NCBI GenBank assembly: GCA_043826435.1
Contig: JBDRQF010000011.1
Location: 7,025-71,024, forward strand
Source: Elusimicrobiota bacterium
GTDB taxonomy: Bacteria > Elusimicrobiota > Endomicrobiia > CG1-02-37-114 > JAHJSO01
Direction of reading: 5' to 3'
DNA: 64,000 nucleotides
In this document: piece after piece, positions 11,634 to 64,000 of the stretch
Layout: each line of letters begins with the position of its first letter
How positions within the stretch are numbered: the first letter of the stretch is position 1
Notes under the pieces: generated by a model
The model's input: the letters and a program-made list of their open reading frames with translations, nothing else
Told to the model about the DNA's origin: nothing
Databases searched by the model: none
Position numbers and translations under genes: made by a program

Positions 11634-12818
11634 TTACCGCAGCGAATATTTAAGCAATTGTTTTATGTAAAGGTCTCCCTGTTGCCGGACCATATAATCA
11701 ATGTCAAATGTCTCGTCAATGGAATCCCTGGCAGTTTCCCCGATTTTCCGGCTTAGAACGGGGTCCTTCAGCAGGGTTATTACTCTTTCGGAAAGTTTAT
11801 TTATATCCTTCGGTTCTGCAAGGAAACCGGTCTCGCCGTCCTGCACTATGTCAACAAGCCCGTCAACCCCGTAAGCCACGACGGGCTTTGCAAGGCACAT
11901 CGCCTCAACGGCCGCCCTGGGGAGCCCCTCCCAGAGTGACGTTAATACGAACACGTCCGTAATTGAAAGGATACGGCTGATGTCTTTCCTCCAGTTTAGA
12001 AGGAGGACGTTCTGTTTTATGCCCGCCTCGGATATCATATTTTCAATCAGGGGCCTTTGTTCACCGTCCCCGACTATAAGGAATTTCGTGCCCGGGACAC
12101 GTTTCAGGATAATTGAAGCCGCAGTTACGAAGTCAGCCAGATTCTTTTGCGGCTTAAACGGGCCTATTGTTGTTACGGTTTTCTCCCCTCCGGCGATTCC
12201 GATTTCGTTCCTTACGGAGTTCTTTTCATCCTCCGCCAGTTTCGTTTTCCTGTAATCGGAAAGCCGTATCCCGCTGCGGACAAGGACGTACTTTTTTTCA
12301 TCCCCTATTTTATTTTTGACGGCCGTGTTAACATTGCTTCTGGAAACGGCTACAAGGACGTCGCTTACGGTCGCAGTCCATTTTTCAGCTGTCAGGAATA
12401 ACGTTCTTGTAAGTTTTTTCTGGTAGTCGTTGAACCCGAAGCCATGGAAGGTGTGGATTATAATTTTTATGCCTGCAAAATGCGCCGCCCACCTGCCGAT
12501 GATTCCCGCTTTTGAAGAGTGGGTATGGACTATGTCGGGTTTTTCCCTCTTCAATATAAGATATATTTGTACCAGGGCGGATATATCCCTCAGGGGGCTT
12601 ACCTGCCTTACGAGGTTCCGGATGAAGAATAATTTTATGCCCGGTATCATCCTTTTCGCTTCGTCGTCAAGGATACCGCCGGTGCCGGCCAGGAGTAGCG
12701 GTTCAAACAAAAGCGGGTCCAGGTGCGAGACGGTATAGAGTGTGTTCTGCTGCGCCCCGCCGAGTTCCAGCATTGTTATTATGTGGGCTACCTTTATTTT
12801 TTTTGTTTCCGGTGACAT
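11634..12818 (-). CDS. Glycosyltransferase family 4 (GT-B, group 1)
   Basis: 394 aa. N-terminal KVAHIITMLELGGAQQ is a GT4 donor-domain opener. The C-terminus has an EGLPRAAVEAM-type E-x7-E region. Confidence 0.8.
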   Translation of the reverse strand: MSPETKKIKVAHIITMLELGGAQQNTLYTVSHLDPLLFEPLLLAGTGGILDDEAKRMIPGIKLFFIRNLVRQVSPLRDISALVQIYLILKREKPDIVHTHSSKAGIIGRWAAHFAGIKIIIHTFHGFGFNDYQKKLTRTLFLTAEKWTATVSDVLVAVSRSNVNTAVKNKIGDEKKYVLVRSGIRLSDYRKTKLAEDEKNSVRNEIGIAGGEKTVTTIGPFKPQKNLADFVTAASIILKRVPGTKFLIVGDGEQRPLIENMISEAGIKQNVLLLNWRKDISRILSITDVFVLTSLWEGLPRAAVEAMCLAKPVVAYGVDGLVDIVQDGETGFLAEPKDINKLSERVITLLKDPVLSRKIGETARDSIDETFDIDYMVRQQGDLYIKQLLKYSLR

Positions 12819-12841
12819 ATATTTTTCTTCCGTTTTTATTG

Positions 12842-14146
12842 TCAGGCGCCTTTAATTTTTTCGACAACGGTTTTGGAGTCCAGTATTGATTCCTCAATGT
12901 ACGAGTATTTCCACCCGCCGAAACGCCCGATTGAATATATTCCGTTTTTATTCAGAAAAGAGTGAATTTCCCTGACGGCGGCTGTCCTGTTCCGGTCATA
13001 GATTATGTATGCATATGGCATCGGCAGGATATTGGTTATCCCGGGGCTTTTATCCCGCTTTGCTATTCCGCACGCCATCAATTGTCGCTGTAGGGCGCTC
13101 GCTGTCCTGTACGGGTCCGGTTTTTCTCCGGGAGTGTGCGATACCTCAACATAAAGAGATGCCTTGCCGGCAGGCGCCATGAATTTTGAAAAGTTGTGGT
13201 AAAACCCCGCCCTGTAAAACATGAATTTTTTTTCAGGGAAGTAAACCCAGTGTTTTGAGTCGTTTATATCCGTTGCGTCATACCCTAAGTTAAAACACAT
13301 CACCGAGTTCCACCGGAGTTTTTCTCCGAAGGCCTTCATTTTTTGCGGGACATTTTCAATAATGTTTAAAAGTTCCGGCAGAGGCATTGTGGATATTATA
13401 TTCTTATACGTAAAGGCGCCTTTTGTTGAAGTTATCCTTTTTTTCTTCATGTCTATTTTTATTGCCGGCGTATTCAGCAGCGGCGACCGTATCCTTTCAA
13501 GCAATGCGTCAATAAGCGACTGTATTCCGCCTTTTACCGGATAGTAAAACGATGCGTTGTAACCGTACTGTTTTGTCTGCATGGTGAATGCCCCGAGTAT
13601 CGTTTCTTCAAGGGTCGGGTTCGGCACAAAGGAAGCGACCCACTCGTCGGTAAGTTCCGATTCATCCACTGTCCAGAGTTTCCTGTTATACGGAAAGAAG
13701 AAGTGTTTTGCGAAGCCCATGCCGAATGTCTTAATCGTCCAGTCCCTGAAAGACAATACCCCGCCGGATGCCGCCGGCCGCCGCCCGGACTGCTGCCTGA
13801 TTTTTGCCTCTATCAACCCGGACAGGCAGTCCGCAATAACCTTGTGCGGAAGGCCGTAAAGATTCGCCTGAAAAGGGTAGCGGGTGTATGTGTCGTGTGA
13901 GAATATCCAGGCGTCCCGCTTGATTTTTTTGATGTTACAACGCAGGAGATTAAATATTAGGCGTTTTGTATAGGGGTTCCTCAGGTGCAGGAGGTGCCCC
14001 GTGTAATCAAATGTGTAACCGCCAGCGCGGACTGACCTGCACAGGCCGCCCGCCGAACCTTCCTTTTCAAGTATAATGCAGTCGTCCGCCATGTGGTAGG
14101 CAGCAGAAAGGCCGGTAATGCCCGCTCCTATTATTATGTTTTTCAT
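12842..14146 (-). CDS. FAD-dependent oxidoreductase (amine oxidase / UDP-galactopyranose mutase-like fold)
   Basis: IIIGAGITGLSAAY dinucleotide-binding motif. Start placed at MKNIIIGAG, which gives an ATGA overlap with the upstream WecA-like gene. The track's 55-aa N-terminal extension overlaps that gene and is rejected. Confidence 0.7.
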   Translation of the reverse strand: MKNIIIGAGITGLSAAYHMADDCIILEKEGSAGGLCRSVRAGGYTFDYTGHLLHLRNPYTKRLIFNLLRCNIKKIKRDAWIFSHDTYTRYPFQANLYGLPHKVIADCLSGLIEAKIRQQSGRRPAASGGVLSFRDWTIKTFGMGFAKHFFFPYNRKLWTVDESELTDEWVASFVPNPTLEETILGAFTMQTKQYGYNASFYYPVKGGIQSLIDALLERIRSPLLNTPAIKIDMKKKRITSTKGAFTYKNIISTMPLPELLNIIENVPQKMKAFGEKLRWNSVMCFNLGYDATDINDSKHWVYFPEKKFMFYRAGFYHNFSKFMAPAGKASLYVEVSHTPGEKPDPYRTASALQRQLMACGIAKRDKSPGITNILPMPYAYIIYDRNRTAAVREIHSFLNKNGIYSIGRFGGWKYSYIEESILDSKTVVEKIKGA

Positions 14147-15159
14147 GTCTGTATTTTTGAAAGCATCACTGCGATTAAAACTGCAACAAGCACCGAACAG
14201 GCGTATATGGCTACTGCGGTATAAAACTGCACGACCGTTACTATGAATGCGAGGAAAGAAAGTAGCATCCCCGCCGCATAAACATAGAGGAGTATTTTTT
14301 TTCTTGGCCACCCGCCTTTTTCAAGCCTGAGCGGGAAGTGGTCCTTACTGCCGACAAACGGCGATATGCCCCTCTTCCACCTGAAATACATTACAAGCAG
14401 TGTGTCGTATATGGGTATGGCGAGTATGAGCATAGGTGCAAACAGTCCCATGTCGTTTATGGTGGTATAACTGGTCCCGAGTGATACGGACGCAAGGATA
14501 AAACCGATAAATAAACTGCCGGTGTCACCCATAAATATTTTGAATTTTTTGCTGAGGTTGTAAGGCAAAAACCCGAGACATCCGCCTGCAAGCGCGACGC
14601 TTGCAAAGTTTACGTACAACTTCTCTTCAACGGGCAAGCCGATGAGGAAAAACCCCATAGCGGCGATAAAAGCGGCCCCGCCGGAGAGCCCGTCCATTAT
14701 GTCTATTATGTTGAAGGCGTTCGTTACGCCGACGACCCACAGGATAGTGATGCAGATGGCGAACCAATCCGGGCGCAAAAATTCAAGGTGTATGCCGTAG
14801 AAGATCAGCAGGATACCCGCGGCGACCTGGATTAAAAACTTGAATTTGAAATGCAGCCCTTTCAGTTTAATGTCGTCAATTATACCGAGGATGCATATTA
14901 TAAAACTTCCCAGGAAAATACCTCTCAGCGACCTGAGTGTCCCCGTGGGGAAGTCAGTAAAAATCCTGATAACCGAGAGCGAAACCCAGAAAGAGACGGC
15001 TATGGCCAGTCCGCCGAGGTACGGCACCGGCGCCTTGTGGGTTTTTATTATGGAGTGCGGGACGTCCATTATGCCGAGTTTTAAAGCAATTTTTCTCATA
15101 ACGGGAACAATCGCTATGGAAACCAGAAATGATAAAACAAAGCAAATCAGTAAGTACAT
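14143..15159 (-). CDS. Polyprenyl-phosphate N-acetylhexosamine-1-phosphate transferase (WecA/MraY family)
   Basis: 338 aa with about 10 TM helices. Has the VGVTNAFNIIDIMDGLSGG motif characteristic of the MraY/WecA PNPT family. Confidence 0.8.
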   Translation of the reverse strand: MYLLICFVLSFLVSIAIVPVMRKIALKLGIMDVPHSIIKTHKAPVPYLGGLAIAVSFWVSLSVIRIFTDFPTGTLRSLRGIFLGSFIICILGIIDDIKLKGLHFKFKFLIQVAAGILLIFYGIHLEFLRPDWFAICITILWVVGVTNAFNIIDIMDGLSGGAAFIAAMGFFLIGLPVEEKLYVNFASVALAGGCLGFLPYNLSKKFKIFMGDTGSLFIGFILASVSLGTSYTTINDMGLFAPMLILAIPIYDTLLVMYFRWKRGISPFVGSKDHFPLRLEKGGWPRKKILLYVYAAGMLLSFLAFIVTVVQFYTAVAIYACSVLVAVLIAVMLSKIQT

Positions 15160-15233: not shown

Positions 15234-17273
15234 TTACCCGGTCCTGTACAGGTAAACGTCATTTTTGTTAAATTCAACTTCAAGATTTTTTATGAGGTTT
15301 TCCCAGTTCTTTTTACCGCGCGGGGTAAAATTAAGAATGCCGTACGGAGCTAACCGCCCTGCTTCATTTTTGTTATACAGGAGGTGCGTAATTTTCGCAC
15401 CCCTGATTTTTGCAAGCATATCAGCATGGTTTTTTGAATCGTTCGCAAGTTTGGCGAAGGGGTCGGGTGCATATACGTTCGTAGCGATGTAGTCCCTTTT
15501 GCAGTAAAACCCGCGTTGCTCGCCTATGAAATAAATTTTGTCATTTACCGGGAGGTTCCTGTTAATGTAGTCAAAGGCGGGGTACGGGGAATATTTCAGT
15601 TTTTTTGCCAGGTATTCCCCCCGGGTTTCTATCCCCAGCGCCACCCAGAACGGGTCAATGATTTTCTGGATATTGAAATACAGGGAAAAATTTGAAACCA
15701 GCAATAAAACGACAAGGGAGTGGACGAATATTTTAATAAACGTCCCGCCCTCTTTCCGTATGGCGGAAATTGTGTACCCGGAAATCACCGCCAGTACAGG
15801 CAGTAAAGGATAGAGGAACCTCAGGACGGGTTTTGCAGAAAACCACACAATGAAATGCAGAAAGACATAACCTAACAGCAATAAGACCTCTTTCCTTTTT
15901 TCTTTCAGCAGCAGCACGGCGGGCACCGTCACAAAATATATGACCCAGCCGAAATCGCCAAGAACGTCAATCCCGCCGCCATATTTCTGGGGTGTTGAGA
16001 TAATATTCCATGGCAGTTGGAATAATTCAAGCAGGATGTTGCTTTTAAATCCGTACTCTGTCAGGACTGCAAAATAATTTCTGGCGCTTACCTGCGGCCA
16101 CGGGATATTTTTAAAACCGAGGACGTTGTATAAAAAAGGGAACACAGGATTGCCGACATTGATTATGTTCTTAATAGCCCACGGGAGAAAGAACATAACT
16201 GCGATGGAATTCATAACGAGTATCTTCTTAACTGATGCGAATGAAAGTTTTTTGTCTTTCAGCAGTATTATAAAGAGGATAACCGATATTGCGGCGGGGG
16301 TAATGACTCCCGTATATTTTGTACCCATGGCGAGCCCGGAAAAAGCGCCGGCAAGATATAAGAACCCGTCGGATCGGGATGCGGCGTAAATTGAAACGCT
16401 GAATACGGACATAAACGTAAAAAATGCAAGCCCGCCCTCAACGTAACTGCTGCCCGCAAGCAGCATGAAAGACGTTGTGGTTGAAAGCAGCAGGGCAGAG
16501 ACCAGCCCGGCAGCCGTCCCGTTAGCCATCCTGCCGGGCATTTCGTCAAGAGCCCCGCGGTTGAAGAAACGCCTGCAGAAACAGAAAACGGCGAGCAGCG
16601 AGAATATGCCGAAAGCAAAGGAGAAGAGGTTGGGCAACGTCTCCGTGCCGGTAAAAAGGGCGAGTGTATATAGCATCTCCATGTTTTGCGGAAAATGCGA
16701 GTAGATATTAAACAATGGGGAAAATATTTTGCCCTCCATTATGTACATTCCGGGCAGGGCAAGGTGATATACGAGCGAATCGTAATATGTCGGCGGGGCG
16801 AAACACGTCACGGCAACAAGCCCGGCGCTGATCAGGATAAAAAAAAGCACGGCGGCATGCAGGGCATCAATTTTCGGCATTTTTACTGCGGACAATTCCC
16901 TGAAAAGCGAAAGTATATCACGGTGCAAAAATGCAAACGCAGATAAAACCGCAACCCATATTATTGTTGTATGGTAAAGGCCGGCGACCCCCAGGATGAA
17001 CATAACGGCGATGACTGCGCCGGTACCGGCGCCGAATTCAAAGATGTTCTTTTCAAGCGCGCTCGCGAACCGGATTTCTGTTTTCGCGCTTATAGCCCGT
17101 ATAACCGCCCTCCCTGCTGCCATGCACAGCCCGACGAAAATAAGGAGCGCGGCAATGTCTTTCAGGATGATAGTAATGCCGGCCAGCGGGTAAGCGAGAA
17201 AATACCCAGCCGTAATCAGCACGGCAATCAAACAATAAAAAATCAGATATGCTTTGGAGAAAATAGTTTGCAT
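15234..17273 (-). CDS. Large polytopic membrane protein, GT-C-like (PMT_2/ArnT-type) glycosyltransferase candidate
   Basis: 679 aa with more than 12 predicted TM segments. Has an acidic first-loop motif ([12 protein letters not shown]) and a hydrophilic C-terminal domain. Sits next to a DPM-synthase-like GT2. Confidence 0.5.
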
Positions 17274-17983
17274 TTTATAATACCGCTTTTGTGGAACAGG
17301 TATTTCATTATTGTGAATAACGTTTCAACCCCGTATTTTGAACTCCGGATAAAATTTATTGACGACGCCTCTGCAAAATATTTTGCAGGCACAGGTACGT
17401 CCCCTATGCGGAACCCGAAATATGCCGCCTCTATCAGGAACTGCTGGTCAAATACGAAATCGTTAGAATTGTTTTCCCACGGTACCGTATCCAGCACCTT
17501 CCTTGAATAAGCCCTGAGCCCGGAGTGCCACTCACCCAGGTTTTGTCCTAAAATCAGGTTTTCAAGGATGGTAAGGAACCTGTTTGACAGGTATTTATAC
17601 AGGGGCATGCCGTTGCTTATGGCTTCCTTCCTTGTCCTTATGCGGTTACCGAGGACGAAATCACATATATCCTCTTTAATGAAAGCGGTCATATGCGAGA
17701 TTATCTTCGGGTCGTACTGGTAGTCGGGATGAATCATTACAATTAGGTCTGCTCCCGATTTAAGGGCCTCCCTGTAACAGGTCTTTTGGTTGGCGCCATA
17801 ACCCATGTTCTTTTCGTGTGTGATTGTCCTCAGCCCGAGTTTTTTTGCAATCTCCACGGTCCCGTCAGTTGAGCAGTCGTCAACAAGCAGTATTTCATCC
17901 GCAGTGCCCGGGGGAATTTCCCGCAGGGTCATTTCAAGCGTCTTTTCGGCATTGTAGGCAGGCATCACTATTATTGTTTTCAT
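17243..17983 (-). CDS. GT2 polyprenyl-phosphate glycosyltransferase (dolichol-P-mannose synthase/GtrB-like)
   Basis: 246 aa with [13 protein letters not shown]...[11 protein letters not shown]...NMGYG and a short C-terminal tail, typical of DPM1/GtrB-type synthases. Confidence 0.8.
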
Positions 17984-19104
17984 ACGAGGGCTCCCCTGTA
18001 AATATTCTCCGTTTCCTTGACCATCTTTTCCATGTTAAAAAATTTCCTGACTTTTTCCCGGGCATTGTTTCCCATCTTTTTCGCTGCCTCAGTATTTTCA
18101 ATAAGCCATATTATCTTCTCCGAAAGTTCTTTTGGGCTGGCCGGACGGACTATTAACCCGTTGAGCCCGTCGTCAATAATCTCCCGGACGCCGCCAGTGT
18201 CCGTTGAAATTACAGGTCTGCCCTGTGACATCGCCTCAAGCAGGACGTTCGGAGTGCCCTCCCACAGCGACGGCAGGACGAATATGTCGGACGATGAAAT
18301 TATCCGGACGGACTCGTCAGCCGGCTGAAAGCCCGTGAATATCACTTTATCTAGTATTTTCATTTTGAGCGCCTGCGCTTCAAGTTGTCTTTTCTGCGGC
18401 CCGTCACCGGTTATGACGAACAAGACGTTCTTGAATTTTGAAAGTACGGAGGGGATTGCAGAAATAAAATGTTCCATCCCCTTCTGTTCGTGCAGGCGGC
18501 CGGCCGTGCAGACCATAATGTCTCCGTCCGCAATTCCCAATTGCGACCTCACTGCTTCCCTTGCGCCGGGTTGCTGCACCGTTTGCTCAACTCCGTTATA
18601 CAGGACAACGAGTTTGTCGGCCGGCATCCCCCCTTTGACGAGGAAAGATTTGAGCGCCATTGAGTTCACTATGATTTTTCTGCACATGCCCGACGTCAGC
18701 CGTTCAACCGGGGCCTGCCATCTTTTCTGTTTCTCCATCACCCTTATGGAAGAAATGACGGGAACGCCCCCTGCCAGCAGTGCCGACAGTCGCCCCAGTA
18801 TATTCGCCTGGAAAAGAAAGGTATGGACTATGCCTATTTTTTCCCGCCTGATAAAATTCGCGAGCATGATGACAGATGCGACAGCCATAACCGGGAAGGC
18901 AATTATACCATATTTATACATCTCCAGGCAATAGACCTTTATGCCCCGCGCTCTGAGTTTTCCTGCATACTCGCCGCATTTTTTTATTGAGTAAACGAAC
19001 GGATTGAAATCCTTGTTTAACCGCGTGGCGGTCTCATACAGCATTTTTTCCGTGCCGCCCATGTTTAGGTCGGTTATTAAAAACAGGATATTTGTTCCGG
19101 CCAT
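17980..19104 (-). CDS. Glycosyltransferase family 4
   Basis: 374 aa GT-B with a C-terminal [18 protein letters not shown] motif. Confidence 0.8.
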
Positions 19105-28378: not shown

Positions 28379-28390
28379 GTTTTTTGCTCT

Positions 28391-33485: not shown

Positions 33486-33487
33486 AG

Positions 33488-46641: not shown

Positions 46642-46802
46642 TCTTGTCAATCAAGACTGTCGGGCTACCCCGTCCGGCCACCCCGTCGCCGACACTACCC
46701 ACAATTTGCTTATTTTAGCAAATTATCCGTGTAATTGCAAATTTCAAGGGGCATGCGGGCAGGATTTGGATGTTACCGGCTTTAATACAGGGGTTCTTAT
46801 AT

Positions 46803-49943: not shown

Positions 49944-50016
49944 TGCGAGGGGCGAAGCCCCGAAGCAATCTCATTTTATGATAATGTCATTGCGAGGCGC
50001 AGCTGAAGCAATCCCA
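49936..50016. repeat. Two direct copies of the same palindromic REP-like unit (TGTGTCATTGCGAGGGGCGAAGCCCCGAAGCAATCTC; TGTCATTGCGAGGCGCAGCTGAAGCAATCCC)
   Basis: Copy A ~49937-49972 is a near-perfect hairpin ATTGCGAGGGGC-GAA-GCCCCGAAGCAAT. Copy B ~49984-50015. They overlap the 3' end of the upstream CDS. Confidence 0.6.
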
Positions 50017-55543: not shown

Positions 55544-55605
55544 CATATATCCATTTATCTTTTTTCGCAAAAAATTACCTCGTTAATCTATTTTGTCAGG
55601 GTGGT

Positions 55606-56358
55606 TTAATCCTGATCACAACCTTGTTTAGAAGCAACTGTAATAAAAACACTTCCGTACATGAAAGAAATTGCTCGTTTATCAATTAAAGCAATAAACC
55701 TTTTTACAAAATCCTTAATTTTATTACCAGTAAGAGGAATTTTAGGAACTAATTTGCAAAATTCTACTTTAAGCCCACTTTCAGTAAGAATTCCTTTCAT
55801 CTTTTCCTCATCAAACGATGCTAAATGTTCTGAAGGAGGAAAAACAGCATAACAATCCGGACAGACAACTTTTTGAATATTTTCTTTATAGGGAACAGTA
55901 ATTATAACTTTCCCCAACGGCTTTAGAACTCTTTTTATTTCTTTAAGCCCTTTTTCAAGAGTGTCCGGCAAAAGATGTTCTAATACCTCAGTCACAAACA
56001 CATAATCAAAAAAACATGTCACAAGCGGCAAATTTGTTATACTCCCCTCTTTAAGAATAATATTTTTATTTAAAGAACTAAATTTTTCTTTTAGACTTTT
56101 TATATTTTGGCGAGAAACATCACATCCATAGACTTCAAATCCTATATTATAAAGTTCATCCATAAGTGTCCCTATTCCACATCCTATATCAAGGGCCTTT
56201 CCAGGCAACCTAAAAAACTTTTTTACATTTTTAATAACACATTTATAAAAATCTGCTGGCAAAAACATACCTTCAGAGAGTTCCGGCAATGTTTCATACA
56301 TTTCCCATAAACTTTTTATTTTTTCTTCGGCCCATTCTACTTCGTGAATTTTTTTCAT
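55606..56358 (-). CDS. Class I SAM-dependent methyltransferase
   Basis: ALDIGCGIGTLMDEL (motif I) and DYVFVTEVLEHL. C-terminal CPDC suggests a small Zn-ribbon-like insertion. Confidence 0.8.
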   Translation of the reverse strand: MKKIHEVEWAEEKIKSLWEMYETLPELSEGMFLPADFYKCVIKNVKKFFRLPGKALDIGCGIGTLMDELYNIGFEVYGCDVSRQNIKSLKEKFSSLNKNIILKEGSITNLPLVTCFFDYVFVTEVLEHLLPDTLEKGLKEIKRVLKPLGKVIITVPYKENIQKVVCPDCYAVFPPSEHLASFDEEKMKGILTESGLKVEFCKLVPKIPLTGNKIKDFVKRFIALIDKRAISFMYGSVFITVASKQGCDQD

Positions 56359-56530: not shown

Positions 56531-57541
56531 TTATTTGTTTTTGAAGTAAGATTTATACCAGGCGATTGTTTTTTTGAGACCTTCTTTTAATGAATATTTT
56601 GCCTTCCAGCCCAGCGCCCTCCTTGCTTTTTCAGATGACAGGTATTGTGCATGTATTTCTGTAAATGGCTTGTCTTTGCCAAGTATTCTTGGCCTGAGTG
56701 TTGACCTGCGATGGAGAGAAATCAGCATTTTAACCAGGTCTAATGCCGTTATTGGTGTTTCACAACTGAAGTTGAATGCATCGCCCCTGACTTCCGGTTT
56801 TTTGACAACTTTTTCCGCCAGGGTTAAATATGCCGAGACAGCATCTTCAATATAAAAATAGTCCCGCACAGGAGTTCCGTCAGAGCGGATGATTGGCGCC
56901 TCATTGTGAATTAAAGAACGGATAGTGCCGGGGATTATTCTTGACCAGTGAAAATCGCCGGGTCCATATAGATTGCCGCACCTGGTTATCGCAATAGGCA
57001 GGTTAAAGGCGTGAAAGTAAGCTTTTGCAAGTGTTTCGGCACATACCTTTGAAGCATCGTATGGATAGAACCCCACCAGGAGATAGTCCTCTTTATATGG
57101 AAGTTTTTTGTGTTCCCCGTACGCCTTATCACTGGAAGCAATAACAACCGATTCAATAGTCCTGCATTCCCGTGCGGATTCCAGGACACACCATGTTCCT
57201 TTTATGTTTGTTTCAAATGTATTTAAGGGAAAGTTTTTTGCAAACGACTCAACTGCCGTAGCGGCCAGATGGAAACATACCTGAATTTCATATTCATTTA
57301 AAACTCTTTTAATAATCGGGTGGTTGGTAATTGAACCCGGAACAATTGATATTTTTTTGTCATAGCTCCCCAGGCAGAGTAGTGAAACAGGAATATAATC
57401 ATTGCTGATCCCTACAATATTTGCTCCTTTTTTGAGGAGATATATTATAATATTTGATGCCAGAAATCCGTAGCAGCCGGTTACGAGGACATTTTTTCCC
57501 CGCCAGAAGTTTTTGTTGGCTTTCATTTCATTTACCTCCAT
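56531..57541 (-). CDS. NAD-dependent sugar 4,6-dehydratase-like SDR (CDP-glucose 4,6-dehydratase-like)
   Basis: NFWRGKNVLVTGCYGFLASN resembles the RfbG N-terminus (FW.GK.V.VTG.TGF). YDASK catalytic motif. 336 aa. Confidence 0.75.
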   Translation of the reverse strand: MEVNEMKANKNFWRGKNVLVTGCYGFLASNIIIYLLKKGANIVGISNDYIPVSLLCLGSYDKKISIVPGSITNHPIIKRVLNEYEIQVCFHLAATAVESFAKNFPLNTFETNIKGTWCVLESARECRTIESVVIASSDKAYGEHKKLPYKEDYLLVGFYPYDASKVCAETLAKAYFHAFNLPIAITRCGNLYGPGDFHWSRIIPGTIRSLIHNEAPIIRSDGTPVRDYFYIEDAVSAYLTLAEKVVKKPEVRGDAFNFSCETPITALDLVKMLISLHRRSTLRPRILGKDKPFTEIHAQYLSSEKARRALGWKAKYSLKEGLKKTIAWYKSYFKNK

Positions 57542-58229
57542 AAAATTTCCACCGCAGTATATTTTTCAGCATCTGAAAACTTGCAGAAAGTTTTATGTGT
57601 GAATTTCCTTTTTCCCTTTTTTGAAAACTGAGGGGAACCTCTGACATTTTGGCTCCGAGAGATGAGGATTTTATAATAAACTCAGAATCAATAAACCAGT
57701 CCTTTGACACAGGAGATATTTTTTCATAAAGAGACCTGGTAAAAATTTTTGGGTTGCTGCCTATGTCTATCGACGGATTGGGGAAGAAAAACTGAAATAG
57801 TATATTAAATATTTTTGAATTTATCTTTCGGAGAAATCCATCCTCTCGGGTTATCCTTTTACCCTGGGCAAAATCAAGCCCTTCCTCTTTTATTTTCTTA
57901 AATACCCTGACTACATCTTCGGGTTTTATCTGGCCGTCTCCTGCCATGTAGCCAACATATTTTCCAGTGGCAGATTTTAGTCCCTGTATTACTCCCCAGC
58001 CATAGCCCTGGTTTATTTCAACGGTTACAACTTTTATTTGCGGATATTTGCCTGCTAATTTTTTCAGGAGTTCGGGTGTTCTGTCGTAAGAGCCATTGTT
58101 GACCGCCACGATTTCATAATGGATGCTATGTTTTGTGAATTCATTTGAGAGGTCTCCGCAGACCTTTTCCACATTTTCTTCTTCGTTGTAGAAAGGAATA
58201 ACTATAGACAAATCAACCGAAGGGATCAT
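57528..58229 (-). CDS. GT2 polyprenyl-phosphate glycosyltransferase (DPM synthase/GtrB-like)
   Basis: LSIVIPFYNEEENV...VAVNNGSYDRT...INQGYGWG. 233 aa. Confidence 0.8.
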   Translation of the reverse strand: MIPSVDLSIVIPFYNEEENVEKVCGDLSNEFTKHSIHYEIVAVNNGSYDRTPELLKKLAGKYPQIKVVTVEINQGYGWGVIQGLKSATGKYVGYMAGDGQIKPEDVVRVFKKIKEEGLDFAQGKRITREDGFLRKINSKIFNILFQFFFPNPSIDIGSNPKIFTRSLYEKISPVSKDWFIDSEFIIKSSSLGAKMSEVPLSFQKREKGNSHIKLSASFQMLKNILRWKFYGGK

Positions 58230-59035
58230 TTTGATTTTTCTCGCCGGGAAATTTTTGAAATATTTAACCTTATTCGGACAAGGTCTCTGAGAATTTTTAA
58301 GAATTCCCTGCGGGGATTGAGCCGTGTGTCAAAATCGCATGACCATTTTAAGGGAAATTCTTTTATGGTGTATCCGAGTCGTTGGGCTATTGACAGGACT
58401 TCAACATCAAAAATGAAGCCGTTTATTTTTTGCTGACTGAGAATTTTTTGGGCTACTTCTTTTTTGAAAAATTTGAAACCGCATTGTGTATCCACTATCC
58501 CCTTAATGTTAACGATTGCTCTTGTAATGGAAGCGAATATCCTGCCGGAAATCGTTCTATAGAATGGTTGCTTTATAACTATTTCCGACTCGCTTAACAG
58601 CCGTGAGCCGATTGCAATATCATATCCGTTTTCTAAAAAATTTATGCCCTTTTCTGTTTCATGAAAAGGAACGCAATATCCAGCGTCAACAAAAAGAATA
58701 TATTTGCCGGTTGCCTGTAAAACCCCAGTTTTCACTGCATAACCTTTTCCTTTGTTTTCAGGATAACTTACTATTTTTAAATTTTTGTGGCGTTCTTTGA
58801 TTTTTGTTAATATATCAAGTGTTTTGTCTTTGCTCCCGTCGTTAACGATTATTATTTCAAAATTATATGTTTGTTTATTGAAATACTCGTATAGCAGTTT
58901 TATGTCTTTCTCTATTTTGTTTTCCTCGTTGTAAGACGGGACTACAACCGAAAGATAAATATCATGCTCTGGTTTCATATAATCGGGCATTTCACGATAA
59001 TCCTCTCTGTAACCCCTACACTGAAAGGGATACAT
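58226..59035 (-). CDS. GT2 polyprenyl-phosphate glycosyltransferase (DPM synthase-like), tandem paralog
   Basis: LSVVVPSYNEENKI...IIIVNDGSKDKT...NKGKGYAV. 269 aa. Confidence 0.8.
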   Translation of the reverse strand: MYPFQCRGYREDYREMPDYMKPEHDIYLSVVVPSYNEENKIEKDIKLLYEYFNKQTYNFEIIIVNDGSKDKTLDILTKIKERHKNLKIVSYPENKGKGYAVKTGVLQATGKYILFVDAGYCVPFHETEKGINFLENGYDIAIGSRLLSESEIVIKQPFYRTISGRIFASITRAIVNIKGIVDTQCGFKFFKKEVAQKILSQQKINGFIFDVEVLSIAQRLGYTIKEFPLKWSCDFDTRLNPRREFLKILRDLVRIRLNISKISRREKSK

Positions 59036-59056: not shown

Positions 59057-59563
59057 TTAATCAATTCCATGTATCTCTCTTTTGTTCTTATGTATTTGCC
59101 TATATCGGTTGCAATCAAAATCCGCCCGAAGATGTTGTTTCTTTGATTGAACTATGGGTTCAGCGATTACAACAAGTTTTTTTGTAACCCTGTTTGCTTC
59201 TTTTATTGCTTTAATAAAGGTATCATCGTCAACATGGTGAAGTGTTTCAAGTATAACTGTTTTGTCAAACGATTTATCAGGGAAATTAAGTTTTGAGATA
59301 TCCATAGCCAGGAAATTTTTTTTATATTTTTCTCTTGCATACTCTATAAATTTTCTATTAATATCAATTCCTGTGTAATTTTGAGTAACCCCCGAAAATC
59401 TTCCTGTGCCGCAGCCCATATCTAATAATGTTTCTGTCTCTGTCAGTTGAAGTTCCTCTTTTATAATTTTAATATACCTGTTGTAATAGCCGGGTTCAAA
59501 CAGCAGGGTTACAAGTTTTCTGACAAAGTTGCGGATATATGCGTTGTCCAGTAATTTTCCCAT
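59057..59563 (-). CDS. Small class I SAM-dependent methyltransferase (C-terminus possibly truncated)
   Basis: LLDMGCGTGRFSG (motif I) and KTVILETLHHVDDD (motif II). Only 168 aa and ends soon after motif III. Confidence 0.6.
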   Translation of the reverse strand: MGKLLDNAYIRNFVRKLVTLLFEPGYYNRYIKIIKEELQLTETETLLDMGCGTGRFSGVTQNYTGIDINRKFIEYAREKYKKNFLAMDISKLNFPDKSFDKTVILETLHHVDDDTFIKAIKEANRVTKKLVVIAEPIVQSKKQHLRADFDCNRYRQIHKNKREIHGID

Positions 59564-59571
59564 GGGTTACC

Positions 59572-61191
59572 CTAAATTTTGCTCAATGTCTTGCTTATGT
59601 CATATATTTTTATTTCGTCATTTTCAAATATCTGCACATCGGGGCTGTTATGTTCTTCCCAGTAGAGCGGTTTGATTTTCCCCGTTCCGAGCGGCACTCT
59701 AAAAACCGGTTCGGATTCGCGGACGATTTCAGTTATCAGGGAATTCAGCGGTATCCTGTTGTACGTATTAACGTGTAAATATTTGACATACAGCATATAC
59801 CGTACATTTTGTTTCCTGTAGAGGGCAAGTAATTCGTCTTTTGATTTTATGTAACTCACATCTATTGTGTTTTCCTTACCGGCAAAAAATTCAGAATTGG
59901 GATAACAAAAACTGATATGTTTCGGGCAGCCGCTTTTAATGATGTATTCAACAGCGGACTTATAGCCGGATTTTATTCCGAGTATCTTAAGGGACTTGTA
60001 AATCCCGGGTGCAGTTATGACAACGAGGGCTGCTGCCAGTTTTACAAGAAAGCTGACCGAAGGGAAAAAACTCAGCAATACCATGACGCCCGTGGACGAT
60101 ATTATGGACATTGAATAGATGGAAGACGAAATAAGGCGGGGCAGGGCGTAGGCATAGGTACCTGTACCGTCGTCCATTGCCAGCGCCTTTTCACGCGATA
60201 TGTCGGGCCTCCCGCTCCAGAATAAAAGAGGGATAAAAAACTGACTGAGCAGGACACCTCCCTCAAAGGATATGTTTTTTAACAGGAGGACGGCGCCCAG
60301 AAAGACAAGCAGGATGGTGAGCGGGCCGTCGAACGCATAGATGGTTTTGAGGTACATCCTTAAAAACGGGAGGCGGGCCGTCGGTAAAACGAAATTCCCC
60401 GACCTAAAAAAGAGTTGTCTGAAGAAGGTCGGGTAAGGGTAACCGATTTCCTTTAGGATGACGAAGAATTCCTCAATGATAATCAGGGGCAATGCCATTG
60501 CCGTGAAGAGCAGTATAAACCGCGAAACCACAATGTCTGCGGGGAATTTAAATAACACCGCTGCCACGATTTCCCACCCGGCAAAGAAAACAGGCAGGTA
60601 GAATTGCCGCGTGTTACAACAGAATGCAGCGCCGACGAAAATGCCGGCGATTATCAGGTAAATGAAATTACCGGTTTTACAACTCATTAAGTAAAGATAG
60701 GTCGCCCATACATAAAATGCCCCGCATGTTATTTCTGCATGTACCGACCTTGAATACACAAGGTGATAACCTGAAACCGTTAGGATTAAGGCGGAGATAA
60801 TGGCGAACAAAGGGCCGAAAATGATTTTACCGGTAAAATATACGCCAAGGATTCCGATTATGCCGAAGAAAGCGTTGGCATATAGGGCAGAGTATTCCAC
60901 ATTGCGGACGACTTTTGAAGTGAGGTAATAAATGAATATGTTAAGCGGGTTCGTGTCAAACAAATAACGCCCGCGGAAACCGGCAGCCGCCTGCCCGAGG
61001 CCAATCTTCTTTTTTGAAAGCAACGGCCTGATGTTCTTTTTGATAAACGTCATTAGGTCGTCAAGGAACGCCACTTCAAGCATCCGGAGCCCGTCGTCAA
61101 AATGAAGGAGCCCCCTCTGTTTGAGAGCATAAAACCTTAGGAAGGCGCCGAGTAGCAGAACAAAAATAACCAGAATCCACGTTAATGCCAT
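59572..61191 (-). CDS. Polytopic membrane protein, GT-C-like glycosyltransferase candidate
   Basis: 539 aa with at least 11 TM helices. Acidic N-terminal loop (HFDDGLRMLEVAFLDD) and a C-terminal hydrophilic domain. Confidence 0.5.
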   Translation of the reverse strand: MALTWILVIFVLLLGAFLRFYALKQRGLLHFDDGLRMLEVAFLDDLMTFIKKNIRPLLSKKKIGLGQAAAGFRGRYLFDTNPLNIFIYYLTSKVVRNVEYSALYANAFFGIIGILGVYFTGKIIFGPLFAIISALILTVSGYHLVYSRSVHAEITCGAFYVWATYLYLMSCKTGNFIYLIIAGIFVGAAFCCNTRQFYLPVFFAGWEIVAAVLFKFPADIVVSRFILLFTAMALPLIIIEEFFVILKEIGYPYPTFFRQLFFRSGNFVLPTARLPFLRMYLKTIYAFDGPLTILLVFLGAVLLLKNISFEGGVLLSQFFIPLLFWSGRPDISREKALAMDDGTGTYAYALPRLISSSIYSMSIISSTGVMVLLSFFPSVSFLVKLAAALVVITAPGIYKSLKILGIKSGYKSAVEYIIKSGCPKHISFCYPNSEFFAGKENTIDVSYIKSKDELLALYRKQNVRYMLYVKYLHVNTYNRIPLNSLITEIVRESEPVFRVPLGTGKIKPLYWEEHNSPDVQIFENDEIKIYDISKTLSKI

Positions 61192-61259
61192 TTCTTATAT
61201 GTGCTCCTTTTCGTATGCTATCCCGCTACGGTTAAGTGTCCACAACTTTGTTTTTGGGT

Positions 61260-62681
61260 TCATCCTTTCGCCTCTGTTTTTTGTTTCATTATTATTTTTT
61301 TAATAAGAAGGAAGTCATCAATTGTTAATAGTCTGAGTGATATAATATATACGGCAAATACAGGGATGGACACGCTTAAATGGGACAGAAGCCCGGTTAT
61401 TATACTTAAGGATAAACCAAGTAAAAGTAGCAGGTTTGTTTTTATGAGAGGTATCTTATATTTTGATATTACTATGGTTATTATTATTGTCTGGATTGTT
61501 AAACCGGCAATCGCGCTGATGGCGGGACCTGTGGATTTAAACGCCGGTATCAGCCAGAAGTTTAATGAAGTGGAAATGATGAAATAGATAAAACCCGCGG
61601 CTATAACCAGGAACGGCCTGTTTATCGAGTAGAAAAATGGGCCGAAGAACGCCTGGAGCCCGAACAAAAAAAGAGTAAATGAATATATTTGAGTAACCTT
61701 TATACTTTCAGCATAAACATTGGTGAACAGTAGGGGAATTATTTTATCGGCGAAACTGAAGATCACAAGGGATATAAAACCGAATGCAATGCCGAGCGTC
61801 TTGCTGCCGAATTGGACGATTTTTTCCTTTGTTTCTACGGTGTCGGGATGTGAAAAATAATACAGGAACGGGACAGGGAGAGATGCGAGCGATAATGATT
61901 CTATTAACTGGGGGACTCTCAGTCCGGCAGAGTAATAACCGACATCAACCGGGTTTTTTAACAGAACCCTTAGCATCACATAGTGCAGTGTTGTTAATAA
62001 GATAAATAATATTTGTCCGACAAACATTGCGAGTCCGAAATTGAATATGTCTTTCCTGATATTCAGGTTGGTGAAGCCAAGATTTTTCCTTATGAATACA
62101 AAATTTATTGCTATAAAGAACAACATTACGAAAAACATGTTGTATATGACGGTTTTAAAACTGTTTGATATAAGGACGATAATTATTATTGAGATGGCCC
62201 GCCAGAAAAATTCATAAGCGCCCTCCAGTATGGACCATTTCAGGAATTTGCCCAGTCCGCGGTAAACCCCCTGGAATATGTTTATAAAAGCATAAAGCAG
62301 TATAAGAAACAGGAATATATTTTTAATTTCCCTGATTTCAATCGGGTACAATTTTGGGAACTTATTTATGCTGAATACAAAAAACAGCGAGAATAGGAGG
62401 AAAGCGATAAAGGTTATTTCAAATGACTGGGAACAAAGATTTTTTTTCTCGTTTTGATTGTTTATTTCGGGCAGGAATCTTGAAAGCGTGCCGGAAAAGC
62501 CGAAACTCAATAACAACCCGATGGTTACTATCAGCTGGGTTACAAGTGAAAATCTGCCATATTCGTCCGGCCCAAGGAGCCGTACCACAAAAATAGACAG
62601 AAATCCGGACAATACCTGAAAAAATATCTTCAATACAAAATATTTTGAACTGGAATGAAATATTTCGGAGTATTTTGACAT
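61260..62681 (-). CDS. Wzx-like oligosaccharide flippase (MOP superfamily, polysaccharide biosynthesis protein family)
   Basis: 473 aa with about 12-14 TM helices. The N-terminus VLKIFFQVLSGFLSIFVVRLLGPDEYGRFSL is typical of PST/Wzx-family exporters. Confidence 0.7.
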   Translation of the reverse strand: MSKYSEIFHSSSKYFVLKIFFQVLSGFLSIFVVRLLGPDEYGRFSLVTQLIVTIGLLLSFGFSGTLSRFLPEINNQNEKKNLCSQSFEITFIAFLLFSLFFVFSINKFPKLYPIEIREIKNIFLFLILLYAFINIFQGVYRGLGKFLKWSILEGAYEFFWRAISIIIIVLISNSFKTVIYNMFFVMLFFIAINFVFIRKNLGFTNLNIRKDIFNFGLAMFVGQILFILLTTLHYVMLRVLLKNPVDVGYYSAGLRVPQLIESLSLASLPVPFLYYFSHPDTVETKEKIVQFGSKTLGIAFGFISLVIFSFADKIIPLLFTNVYAESIKVTQIYSFTLFLFGLQAFFGPFFYSINRPFLVIAAGFIYFIISTSLNFWLIPAFKSTGPAISAIAGLTIQTIIITIVISKYKIPLIKTNLLLLLGLSLSIITGLLSHLSVSIPVFAVYIISLRLLTIDDFLLIKKIIMKQKTEAKG

Positions 62682-64000
62682 TACTTGTTATAGGGGACTT
62701 TTTTTATTAACGGTGACACCAGTTGTTTCTGCCTGCCGACAAACTTTATTAAACGGCTCAAACCCGCCGCCAACCCGTATAGGTTTAATCTGATAAAAAT
62801 CCTGAACAAGTTTCCCAACAGTTTATTCGCTATTTTTTCAAGACGTTCTCTCCCGCCTAAAAAATTCTTAAAACTTTTTGCATCTAGCCAGGTTGCGACA
62901 TAAGCCATTTCTTTTACAAACTCAAATTTTTTGCTGTCGTCCTGCAGCCATGGATAAAGTTTTGATTCCCACGCCTCATAATCAAATTTGACCCAGTCCT
63001 CCATTTTTTCAGGGGGCTTAAATCCATACTGTTTCGCAACCTCAAACAATTCCATCCCGGGATACAGGGTGACCATCATCAATTGTGTTATGTAGGCGGA
63101 CGGATTGTCTTCAAGCAGCCGGTTAATCAGTTTAATTGTTAATTTCACGTCCTCTATGGTTTCCGTCGGGAACCCTGCCATGAAGCCGAACCTTGCCGTG
63201 ATTCCGACTTCCCTCAATTTTTTATTTACTTCAATCACCTGTTCCACCGTTATGTCTTTTTTTATGTCATTTAGTATCTTTGCCGAGCCGGACTCTACCC
63301 CGATGTATATTTCAACAAAACCGGCTCTCTTAAGCAGTTTCAGGTAATCCATGGAAAAACAATAAAGGTAATTCGCCCTGCAGCCACTGGTAAGTTTTAT
63401 TGAAATGTTTTTTTCGATGATAAGCCCACATATTTCCGTCGCACGGTCAAAATCGGCAAAAAAATTGTCATCCAGTAACTGGATCGTTGATATTTCCGGG
63501 TTTTTGACTAAATATTCAATGTGGGGCAAAACAGATTTCGGTTCTATTGCCCGGTGTTTCCTGAAATTAAACGCAACGTTGTAGCAGAAACCGCACCTGT
63601 GCGGGCAACCTCTGCTGGTAAAAATTGGGAACAGTCCGTTAATTATATAATCGTTGACGTTTATCAGACCATAATTCGGTATTGGAGATTTATTGAGATT
63701 TGCAAACCCGCAGGGCTGATTTACAATAATTTTGCCTTTTTCCCTGTATCCAATCCCCTTCATCTTTTTGATGGCTTCAGGGTTGCCCAGGTTTTTAAGC
63801 AATTCAACGAACGTTTCTTCACCGTCGCCGATAACAACGTAATCCACAAATTCATTTTGCAGCGTGTCGTCGGGCATCAGGGAAGGGTGTACACCCCCTA
63901 AAATGACAGGAATGGCACTGTCAATAGTTTTTATGAATTTCGCTACTTCAAGGGCGGATTTAATCTGATAACCGCTCATGGCGCTCAGCCCCACGGCGTA
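62681..64000 (-). CDS. B12-binding radical SAM protein (copy 4; N-terminus runs off the window)
   Basis: ...PVILGGVHPSL... cobalamin-domain motif and TSRGCPHRCGFCYN. The frame is open through position 64000. Confidence 0.8.
   Translation of the reverse strand, partial: YAVGLSAMSGYQIKSALEVAKFIKTIDSAIPVILGGVHPSLMPDDTLQNEFVDYVVIGDGEETFVELLKNLGNPEAIKKMKGIGYREKGKIIVNQPCGFANLNKSPIPNYGLINVNDYIINGLFPIFTSRGCPHRCGFCYNVAFNFRKHRAIEPKSVLPHIEYLVKNPEISTIQLLDDNFFADFDRATEICGLIIEKNISIKLTSGCRANYLYCFSMDYLKLLKRAGFVEIYIGVESGSAKILNDIKKDITVEQVIEVNKKLREVGITARFGFMAGFPTETIEDVKLTIKLINRLLEDNPSAYITQLMMVTLYPGMELFEVAKQYGFKPPEKMEDWVKFDYEAWESKLYPWLQDDSKKFEFVKEMAYVATWLDAKSFKNFLGGRERLEKIANKLLGNLFRIFIRLNLYGLAAGLSRLIKFVGRQKQLVSPLIKKVPYNK

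Follow-up and report, generated by a model that had tools for sequence, protein, structure and literature searches.

The DNA analysed here, hereafter the window, is a 64,000-nt stretch of a metagenome-assembled genome (MAG) of an Elusimicrobiota bacterium (assembly GCA_043826435.1, contig JBDRQF010000011.1, positions 7,025-71,024 of the forward strand). All the open reading frames (ORFs) that tile it lie on the minus strand. From position 11634 to the window edge at 64000 they form a run of 45 ORFs of at least 100 aa and one of 89 aa (g47), which together cover about 98.6% of this interval and are numbered g12 to g57 by position. The run is probably the larger part of a composite, lipid-carrier-based locus for the biosynthesis of a cell-envelope glycan, ~53 kb long, that extends from a MarR-like gene just outside the window to a family 4 glycosyltransferase (GT4) gene beside icd. 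A preliminary description of the DNA had spoken of about 50 consecutive minus-strand genes; the run itself was confirmed, with a count of 46 in the window.

The Pfam content of these genes (Table 1) agrees with the earlier picture of a very large, dense and co-directional glycan-assembly cluster. Carbohydrate-specific families account for 31 of the 46 ORFs. These are seven GT-C enzymes of the PMT_2 type (g15, g18, g20, g22, g34, g39 and g55), seven GT2 enzymes (g16, g28, g37, g41, g45, g52 and g53), five GT4 or other GT-B enzymes (g12, g17, g43, g44 and g48), three single proteins (the WecA/MraY-family primer g14, the MOP flippase g56 and g21 with a sub-threshold Wzy_C match) and nine nucleotide-sugar enzymes, namely the DegT aminotransferases g31, g33 and g35, the short-chain dehydrogenases/reductases (SDRs) g32 and g51, the GFO-family oxidoreductase g36, the hexapeptide acetyltransferase g38, the HldE-like g26 and the FAD enzyme g13. 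Another 12 belong to generic tailoring families: four B12-binding radical S-adenosylmethionine (SAM) enzymes (g23, g40, g49 and g57), one SPASM radical SAM enzyme (g27), four methyltransferases (g19, g46, g50 and g54), the E1-type pair g29 and g30, and the AsnB-type protein g42. The remaining three (g24, g25 and g47) match no family. That all these genes act on sugars thus holds by family for 31 of them, and by context for the 12 generic ones, the three without a family being unassigned.

Table 1. Genes, gaps and repeat of the cluster (all positions in the window; L numbers, homologous metagenome or genome loci; TM, transmembrane segment; GC3, GC content at third codon positions)
Feature	Position	Strand	Assignment	Matches and remarks
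gap	11534-11633		100 nt	boundary with icd
g12	11634..12818	-	GT4	PF00534 2e-37, PF13439; last cluster gene, tail block beside icd
g13	12842..14311	-	FAD enzyme, UDP-galactopyranose mutase-like (eukaryote-type)	PF01593, PF13450
g14	14143..15159	-	WecA/MraY-family polyprenyl-phosphate N-acetylhexosamine (HexNAc)-1-P transferase (initiating)	PF00953 4e-32
g15	15234..17273	-	GT-C, 679 aa, tail block	PF13231 PMT_2; ~15 TM
g16	17243..17983	-	small GT2, polyprenyl-phosphate sugar synthase type (ArnC/DPMS-like)	PF00535
g17	17980..19104	-	GT4	PF00534 2.5e-47; 46% identity to syntenic gene, sister L170
g18	19104..20879	-	GT-C	PF13231; 33% identity in L170; ~9 TM
g19	20854..21669	-	SAM-dependent methyltransferase	PF08241, PF13649; called as 234 aa in L176
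g20	21542..23245	-	GT-C (PMT_2/PMT)	PF13231 2.6e-12, PF02366
g21	23223..24782	-	polytopic membrane protein, weak Wzy_C	PF04932; ~9 TM
g22	24766..26316	-	GT-C	PF13231 26.2 bits, at cutoff; GC3 0.38; first gene of lower-GC stretch
g23	26321..27811	-	B12-binding (class B) radical SAM	PF04055, PF02310; predicted C-terminal TM, residues 468-493
g24, g25	27827..28945	-	tandem paralogues, 183 and 184 aa	50% identical; no Pfam match
g26	28962..30494	-	nucleotidyltransferase + PfkB sugar kinase, bifunctional	PF01467 residues 33-144, PF00294 199-493
g27	30540..31643	-	radical SAM/SPASM	PF04055, PF13186; GC3 0.28
g28	31650..32429	-	small GT2	PF00535; GC3 0.24
g29, g30	32436..34447	-	E1-type thiamine-diphosphate enzyme, beta and alpha	PF02779/PF02780, PF00676; GC3 0.24-0.25
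g31	34468..35583	-	DegT sugar aminotransferase	PF01041 1.5e-111; 64% identity to L175
g32	35631..36680	-	SDR nucleotide-sugar epimerase/dehydratase	PF01370; 70% identity to L175
g33	36619..37740	-	DegT sugar aminotransferase	PF01041 3e-108; 66% identity to L175
g34	37737..39440	-	GT-C (NCBI name: glycosyltransferase family 39)	PF13231, PF02366; 59-60% identity in L174, L175
g35	39430..40545	-	DegT sugar aminotransferase	PF01041 9e-109; 49-50% identity to syntenic genes, L174, L175
g36	40598..41602	-	GFO/IDH/MocA oxidoreductase, UDP-GlcNAc 3-dehydrogenase-like	PF01408; 64-69% identity, L174, L175
gap	41603-41845		243 nt	largest intergenic
repeat	41619..41741	-	REP/MITE-like palindromic repeat	in g37-g36 gap
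g37	41846..42550	-	small GT2, polyprenyl-phosphate sugar synthase type	PF00535; 54-56% identity in L174, L175
g38	42566..43219	-	hexapeptide-repeat sugar N-acetyltransferase (NeuD/PglB/VioB-like)	PF00132; TIGR03570 5e-30; 61-64% identity L174, L175
g39	43257..44516	-	GT-C, 419 aa	PF13231 7e-13; 48-49% identity L174, L175
g40	44522..45958	-	B12-binding radical SAM	PF04055, PF02310; predicted C-terminal TM, residues 408-444
g41	45961..46650	-	small GT2	PF00535 2.8e-39
gap	46651-46802		152 nt	161 nt if ATG at 46641 used
g42	46803..48710	-	AsnB-type glutamine amidotransferase	PF00733, PF13537; TIGR01536 above cutoff; 64-65% identity L174, L175
g43, g44	48711..51083	-	GT4	PF13692, PF00534, PF13439; g43 55% identity to L174 gene
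g45	51089..51964	-	GT2, 291 aa	PF00535, PF13641; one predicted C-terminal TM
g46	51942..52643	-	SAM-dependent methyltransferase	PF13489; 59% identity to gene in sister L166
g47	52640..52909	-	ORF, 89 aa	no Pfam match; called as gene in independent contigs L179, L180
gap	52910-53066		157 nt
g48	53067..53975	-	GT-B type (Glyco_trans_1_2)	PF13524 1e-32; 48% identity L166; GC3 0.28
g49	53972..55570	-	B12-binding radical SAM	PF04055, PF02310; GC3 0.21
g50	55606..56358	-	SAM-dependent methyltransferase	PF08241; GC3 0.20
gap	56359-56530		172 nt
g51	56531..57541	-	SDR nucleotide-sugar epimerase/dehydratase	PF01370, PF16363
g52, g53	57528..59035	-	small GT2s, head block	PF00535; 51-56% identity L166, L168
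g54	59057..59563	-	SAM-dependent methyltransferase, head block	PF08241; 59-69% identity L166, L168
g55	59572..61191	-	GT-C, head block	PF13231 1e-10; 52-59% identity L166, L168
g56	61260..62681	-	MOP-superfamily (Wzx/Polysacc_synt) flippase, head block	PF01943; 40% identity L166, L168
g57	62681..64000	-	B12-binding radical SAM, cut by window edge	PF04055, PF02310; full 508 aa, start near 64207

The genes are tightly packed. At 18 of the 45 internal junctions the genes overlap or abut; spacers of 1-25 nt are found at 15, of 26-99 nt at 8 and of at least 100 nt at 4, as counted with longest-ORF starts. The starts of g13, g19 and g32 are clearly over-extended, which leaves the picture unchanged. 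Translational coupling is plausible from the overlapping genes, and the five intergenic gaps reported earlier are all present. The minus strand also carries the 11 large housekeeping ORFs at 744-11533, so that co-directionality marks the window as a whole and is not specific to the cluster. The plus-strand GC skew is negative across most of the window, and the cumulative skew declines overall.

As the preliminary description had supposed, the cluster is not closed at 64000; it continues for ~700 nt, to a MarR-like first gene. About 1.4 kb of sequence beyond the edge came from L001 and L165. The former, a Logan contig, is 100% identical to the window over 4104 nt and completes the g57 ORF. The start of g57 is overlapped by 4 nt by a gene for a 165-aa MarR_2-like protein (28.8 bits), which reaches ~64701 and is the NCBI entry ABIJ11_01960 (Elusimicrobiota); g34 maps to the same NCBI contig. 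In L165, from a near-identical strain, the MarR-like gene is preceded by a gap of 158 nt and, before that, by a same-strand gene without family match whose product ends in ...SFSVKF. Given this gap and the gene beyond it, the cluster most likely ends at ~64.7 kb, which brings it to ~53 kb and 48 genes.

We also checked the integrity of the assembly. Independent Logan and ENA contigs from other runs are 100% identical to the window over 14766-31263, 49945-58882 and 59897-64000, while 31.3-49.9 kb is backed only by synteny with relatives. The transitions in GC content described below fall inside the reproduced stretches, and an assembly chimera at the GC shifts is rejected on the full identity of independent contigs across them. 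Independent assemblies were seen to break repeatedly at the edges of the variable parts, at the g19-like gene (start of L170/L171), within the MarR-like gene (start of L002-L004) and in the low-GC g27 block (end of L176, window position 31263), a pattern that fits heterogeneity of the locus between strains.

Several genes match components expected of a lipid-carrier pathway. The primer candidate g14 scores 111.8 bits against PF00953 (cutoff 27), as would the initiating transferase of a Wzx/Wzy locus; it has ~9 predicted TM, matches the WecA model TIGR02380 at 3e-33, below the equivalog cutoff, and has 299 metagenome relatives, the best at 64-68% identity. Beside it in all related loci is g13, whose true start is probably near 14167 and whose best PDB matches are UDP-galactopyranose mutases (UGMs; 4dsg at E 1e-38, then 3ute at 1e-31). 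The flippase g56 exceeds the PF01943 cutoff (42.5 against 28.2 bits) and has ~14 TM, in keeping with a Wzx protein. The whole 53 kb yielded only a single initiating transferase and a single MOP flippase.

The second set of components resembles three-component periplasmic glycosylation, an established scheme in which a polyprenyl-phosphate (polyprenyl-P) sugar synthase acts with a flippase and a GT-C enzyme (PMC11127046). Seven proteins match PF13231, and the structural model of g34 is that of a GT-C enzyme. On the GT2 side, g16, g37 and g52 match ArnC, dolichol-phosphate mannose synthase (DPMS) and sll0501 in the PDB (E 1e-8 to 1e-18), an assignment by homology only. The matches of g37 to ArnC and sll0501 are full-length, as are those of g52 to DPMS (1e-18) and ArnC (6e-15), and those of g16, which likely starts at 17965, include ArnC and DPMS. 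This small GT2 is the most conserved gene of the cluster, with 61-81% identity to many Elusimicrobia-labelled proteins. The neighbouring g15 has 27-34% identity to its syntenic homologues; an identical protein in L176 is recorded with DUF8201 and PMT_2, and PDB sequence searches with g15 and g34 gave no matches. Several g34 homologues of ~790 aa from Elusimicrobiota and Endomicrobiia (P0231-P0240) are natural fusions of a GT2 with a GT-C (PMT_2) domain, a Rosetta-stone link between the two enzyme classes.

Among the sugar-modifying enzymes, g36 matches NF040723 at 2e-48, below the cutoff, and the bifunctional g26 is HldE-like with the domain order reversed, reaching 1e-30 to 1e-44 with the HldE domain models, again below their cutoffs. 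The E1-type pair g29/g30 exceeds the cutoff of NF006667 (343 bits) and may supply a two-carbon branch or act as an acyl donor for a sugar, and g42 would amidate a uronic acid or a similar carboxylate. PF02310 and PF04055 are both above their cutoffs in g23, g40, g49 and g57, which makes these four class B radical SAM enzymes. Membrane anchors are predicted on g23 and g40 and on neither g49 nor g57; the predicted C-terminal helices of the former two would fit action at the membrane. For g23 the best NCBIfam match, HpnJ, scores 185 bits, the cutoff being 578.

B12-radical SAM methylases, DegT and GFO enzymes and E1-type thiamine-diphosphate enzymes are typical, too, of the pathways that lead to aminoglycosides and deoxysugar antibiotics. 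This class of enzymes, together with weak NCBIfam similarities to radical SAM enzymes of the AprD4, KedN5 and PhpK type, raises the idea that the genes make a secondary metabolite, either an aminoglycoside-like compound or a glycolipid natural product. We consider this highly improbable: the seven polytopic GT-C enzymes, the WecA-like primer, the MOP flippase and the Wzy_C-like protein speak for assembly at the membrane on a lipid carrier, the Pfam scans list no 2-deoxy-scyllo-inosose synthase, resistance gene or exporter family, and the position beside housekeeping genes is kept across the clade.

For the envelope-glycan locus, we infer both the pathway chemistry and the acceptor from gene content, as follows. 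g14 would prime polyprenyl phosphate with HexNAc-1-phosphate, and cytoplasmic GT4 and GT2 enzymes would extend the lipid-linked glycan with nucleotide sugars made by the cluster itself. Of these, g13 (UGM-like) would supply UDP-galactofuranose; the oxidoreductase g36, the aminotransferase g35 and the acetyltransferase g38 a 3-acetamido sugar; g26-g33 and g51 further sugars of the amino, deoxy, branched or heptose type; and the AsnB-type g42 an amidated residue. The four B12-binding radical SAM enzymes, the SPASM radical SAM enzyme and the four methyltransferases would tailor the sugars. The flippase g56 could then carry lipid-linked material across the inner membrane, where up to seven periplasmic GT-C enzymes may add residues from polyprenyl-monophosphate sugars. 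The donors for these would be made by the small ArnC/DPMS-like GT2s, at least by g16, g37 and g52, with g28, g41 and g53 as candidates by size and family only, so that the GT2 and GT-C sets would represent several Gtr/Arn-type decoration modules side by side. Finally, the Wzy_C-like g21 might polymerise or ligate the product, for which lipid A-core, a polysaccharide, a protein and a lipid are all candidate acceptors.

Several results weigh against this reading. The only WaaL/Wzy candidate, g21, scores 27.8 bits with PF04932, under the gathering score of 31.7 bits; it has no match in the PDB or NCBIfam and may act as polymerase, as ligase or as O-oligosaccharyltransferase. Pfam scans of every ORF in the window list no polysaccharide co-polymerase of the Wzz type and no Wza/Wzc protein (PF02706, PF02563 or related), genes that could lie elsewhere in the genome, and neither an ABC exporter nor a GtrA, SMR-type or EamA (ArnE/F-type) flippase. 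In NCBIfam no radical SAM or GT-C protein reaches an equivalog cutoff, which leaves the tailoring chemistry a guess; the only models passing their cutoffs are TIGR01536 (asparagine synthase, generic) and a pyruvate dehydrogenase E1-beta subfamily. The flippase g56 might serve the head of the cluster alone by flipping polyprenyl-P sugars instead of repeat units. Promoter and terminator scans of the window gave counts near or modestly above those of shuffled controls, and no clear operon map. Moreover, parts of the cluster occur on their own: g13-g16 are present in L102, L139, L150 and L154 and g12-g14 in the more distant L005, L111 and L116, there with groES-groEL, coaX and recG directly upstream, in each case with the other cluster genes absent. 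The blocks, then, may lie side by side in the window yet serve different products.

Comparison with the loci of relatives resolves the cluster into three conserved blocks that are inherited within this Elusimicrobiota clade, with low-GC cassettes between them. The tail block (g16-g15-g14-g13-g12), followed by icd-ndk-ackA-yceD-rpmF-plsX-fabH, is found in several metagenomic loci and in the sister MAG GCA_043819315.1, where all genes from g19 to g12 are syntenic, g19 itself being 53% identical to a partial homologue at the sister contig end. The same block with icd-ndk-ackA-plsX is present in L170, L093-L095, L107 and L109; syntenic homologues of g12 at 47-55% identity lie beside icd in these, in L087 (L087/L170) and in L005. 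The head block, comprising the MarR-like gene, g57, g56, g55, g54, g53 and g52, recurs at 40-69% identity in L166/L167, from a sister lineage, and in L168/L169, of the RIFOXYA2_FULL_39_19 type; a divergent ECF sigma/anti-sigma pair lies upstream of it in these genomes. A radical SAM gene is always the first enzyme gene after the MarR-like regulator. The middle block (g43, g42, ..., g39, g38, g35, g37, g36, g34) is found at 48-69% identity in L174 and L175, co-directional and on the same contigs as the head, where the clusters could be followed from the MarR gene for at least 36-40 kb. Homologues of g31-g33 and g22 (53-70%; 53% for g22) are also present in L175, a cluster of the RIFOXYA2_FULL_39_19 type, in rearranged order. 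The recurrence of head and middle in relatives makes the giant co-directional glycan locus a trait of the clade and not a peculiarity of one assembly. The supercluster is not a monolithic unit: conserved blocks are combined with variable low-GC cassettes, and the tail occurs alone in many genomes.

After the AsnB gene, L174 (2693-3844) and L175 (2089-3261) carry a GT9 (heptosyltransferase-family) gene, at the place taken in the window by the GT2 gene g41. Together with the HldE-like g26, this hints at heptose-containing glycans of the lipopolysaccharide (LPS) type.

The block structure invites the view that several independent envelope pathways are linked by position only, on the leading strand. 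The tail could hold a conserved pathway for a galactofuranose-containing glycolipid or a primer, the middle a module for Arn-like modification of lipid A or a glycan, and the head a separate three-component module. We regard this as possible but unlikely. In addition to the isolated occurrences of g13-g16 and g12-g14 noted above, a g18-g16-g17-like trio stands in a different context in L172, the four internal gaps of 152-243 nt include two with sigma70-like promoter matches, and a regulator, a flippase, a GT-C enzyme and GT2s of its own are encoded in the head block. Since the whole window is encoded on one strand, co-directionality is no proof of a unit. On the other hand, the linkage of head and middle, with order and orientation unchanged, is seen in two further genomes of widely different GC content, 33 of the 45 junctions are no longer than 25 nt, and separate pathways fit poorly with the single initiating transferase and the single MOP flippase. 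The single composite glycan locus is the favoured interpretation.

For the GT-C enzyme g34, the AlphaFold2 model has a pLDDT of 93, and all structure matches at E <= 0.001 are GT-C enzymes, among them ALG12, AglB/STT3, Pmt4, ArnT, ALG9, PglB and AftD, at TM-scores of ~0.5 with no family standing out. Protein O-mannosyltransferases (PMTs) carry a loop-1 Asp-Glu (DE) motif, and the Wzy_C domain is common to Wzy, WaaL and PglL/PilO. The locus could glycosylate pilins, S-layer or other envelope proteins, with g21 as a PglL/PilO-like enzyme that moves the flipped lipid-linked glycan to protein and the PMT_2 enzymes adding sugars from polyprenyl-P donors straight to Ser/Thr, in the manner of the PMTs of actinobacteria and eukaryotes. 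Like the GT39 enzymes (PMTs) with their Ppm1/DPMS partners, the cluster combines PMT/PMT_2 matches (PF02366 in g20 and g34) with DPMS-like GT2s; the loop-1 Asp-Glu (D42-E43) is invariant in 38 g34 homologues, Pmt4 is among the top structural matches, and the family 39 name that NCBI gives g34 points the same way, as does L168, where two Wzy_C proteins and a GT2 are encoded beside a secretin gene just upstream of the head block. However, no MIR domain and no acceptor-protein gene is found in the window, the g34 fold matches PMTs no better than oligosaccharyltransferase, ALG, ArnT and Emb/Aft enzymes, leaving no PMT-specific signal, and the Wzy_C match of g21 is below threshold. The GT9 gene of the relatives and the HldE-like g26 also point to LPS-type glycans instead. 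On balance we find protein O-glycosylation improbable, and an envelope glycan remains the preferred product of the locus.

The conserved and variable parts of this locus also differ in composition. GC3 is 0.5-0.6 in the housekeeping genes, g12-g20, g33-g42 and g55, drops to 0.23-0.28 in g27-g30 and to 0.20-0.28 in g48-g50, and takes intermediate values around these stretches. Because the relatives that share the locus are much lower in GC (0.33-0.39 in the fetched loci), cassette exchange among Elusimicrobiota is a plausible source of the low-GC genes. With their unusually low GC, these cassettes seem to have been exchanged or acquired, which is what diversifying selection on a surface-antigen locus would lead one to expect. 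No two paralogues of the cluster are more than 50% identical, the closest being the DegT proteins (41-49%) and the g24/g25 pair, which rules out recent tandem duplication as their origin.

We next compared the cluster with known systems. With Wzx/Wzy loci for O-antigens and other heteropolysaccharides it shares a primer transferase, a MOP flippase, a Wzy_C-like protein, many GT2 and GT4 enzymes and nucleotide-sugar genes within the locus; with these loci, including Leptospira rfb, it also shares the single direction, the variable cassettes and the signs of horizontal exchange. In contrast to them, no Wzz and no clear WaaL/Wzy was found in the window, and seven GT-C and five radical SAM enzymes are far above the usual number. 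Its size does exceed that of a typical O-antigen or capsule locus, as the preliminary description had it, but is not unprecedented. Large LPS loci that run in one direction and contain variable regions are known, and Leptospira rfb may be longer than 100 kb (PMC13111663).

Likeness to the three-component systems GtrA/GtrB/Gtr*, ArnC/ArnEF/ArnT and that of Citrobacter youngae lies in the pairing of ArnC/DPMS/sll0501-like GT2s with GT-C enzymes and in the GT2+GT-C fusions among homologues. Systems with multiple GT-C enzymes are known, and C. youngae ORF12-15 uses a MATE-family flippase (PMC11127046), comparable to the MOP-superfamily flippase of the head block. The cluster differs in that up to seven GT-C enzymes are gathered in one locus, as opposed to one module added to a backbone locus, and in that the cluster Pfam scans list no small flippase of the GtrA, SMR or EamA type; the small membrane proteins g24 and g25 are uncharacterised. 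The Arn pathway is further set apart by its ArnA and ArnD domains: no formyltransferase or polysaccharide deacetylase domain was found by Pfam in any cluster ORF, and the ArnA model gives a weak partial SDR match only, to g32.

Mycobacterial cell-wall and protein-glycosylation loci had also been put forward for comparison. The WecA-type primer, the UGM-like enzyme and multiple GT-C enzymes using polyprenyl-phosphate donors are indeed shared with arabinogalactan and lipoarabinomannan synthesis, although as an analogy only. The UGM-like protein of the cluster is of the long eukaryote type, its GT-C enzymes are of the PMT_2 type with Emb/Aft as distant fold matches of g34 only, and the Pfam listings of the cluster ORFs contain no UbiA, DprE1/E2-type (FAD_binding_4) or arabinosyltransferase-family match and no GlfT-specific assignment. 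Altogether, the cluster is a large and ornate case of a known type of surface-polysaccharide locus, not a new kind of system, and literature searches found no description of this Elusimicrobia locus. A bolder reading, which we hold to be rather improbable, is that this Elusimicrobiota clade keeps a >50-kb envelope-glycan line in which B12-binding radical SAM enzymes C-methylate or otherwise radically modify lipid-linked sugars, and a large GT-C set then builds much of the polymer in the periplasm, arabinogalactan-like, in a diderm phylum. Two of these radical SAM enzymes carry predicted membrane anchors, and one is encoded at the head of the order.

The map presented here, of the main locus for surface glycans in an uncultured lineage of Elusimicrobiota, separates clade-wide blocks from exchangeable cassettes. 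It should help to interpret strain heterogeneity and assembly breaks in metagenomes and to predict the diversity of surface antigens and phage receptors in Elusimicrobiota, and it offers candidate enzymes for biochemistry, namely the orphan B12-radical SAM enzymes and the GT2/GT-C pairs and fusions.

The tandem genes g24 and g25 lie directly downstream of the B12-radical SAM gene g23. The N-terminal half of each product is hydrophobic or membrane-embedded, with 4-5 predicted TM, and the C-terminal half is weakly winged-helix-like. Their uncharacterised family has 326 representatives in 1.84 billion proteins, and of 40 members, 12 gave weak matches to PF25213 (HVO_A0261_N), 8 to HTH_45 and 7 to HemN_C. 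The AlphaFold2 model of g24 has a pLDDT of 52 and was left out of the fold search. In g57, the contigs L002, L003, L004 and L165, from four other samples, differ from the window by a 1-nt indel at the equivalent of ~63.85-63.9 kb, which splits the gene into a 118-aa ORF and a downstream fragment of 398, 388 and 398 aa (L002-L004), the fragment in L165 being cut by the contig end. Either the gene is a pseudogene in some strains, or the same assembly error has recurred.

Downstream of the cluster, the flank (1-11533, minus strand) encodes an acyl-CoA dehydrogenase, rnc, fabF, acpP, fabG, fabD, fabH, plsX, rpmF, yceD, ackA, ndk and icd, of which acpP and rpmF are deduced from two gaps within 744-11533; rpmF is called in L170. 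The icd-ndk-ackA-plsX-fab neighbourhood recurs in related Elusimicrobiota genomes. This bears out the claim that the cluster adjoins core housekeeping genes (icd-ndk-ackA-yceD-plsX-fab-rnc) and is chromosomal. tRNA and Rfam scans of the window found nothing, and hence no signature of a tRNA-anchored island. Judged from the conserved housekeeping synteny, a plasmid or phage origin is unlikely; no dedicated search was run.

Two intergenic gaps contain repeats. The gap between icd and g12 has an imperfect 25-nt direct repeat at 11560-11616, CA(C/G)A(T/C)CCATCTTGCGGCGC..., in copies 32 nt apart, which may be a regulatory site for icd. The palindromic repeat in the g37-g36 gap consists of two direct copies, GTCAT(T/C)GCGAG...CGTGGCAATC, and an inverted partner. 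It has no Rfam match; its minus-strand RNA is predicted to fold into a ~90-nt hairpin (minimum free energy -55.5 kcal/mol, z -5.9), and a sigma70-like promoter match, TTGAAT-17-TATAAT (TG), lies just upstream at 41812-41784. The 11-mer core of the repeat, GTCATTGCGAG, is also present, partly as inverted pairs, in six further loci from several phyla (L109, L055, L018, L023, L027 and L093).

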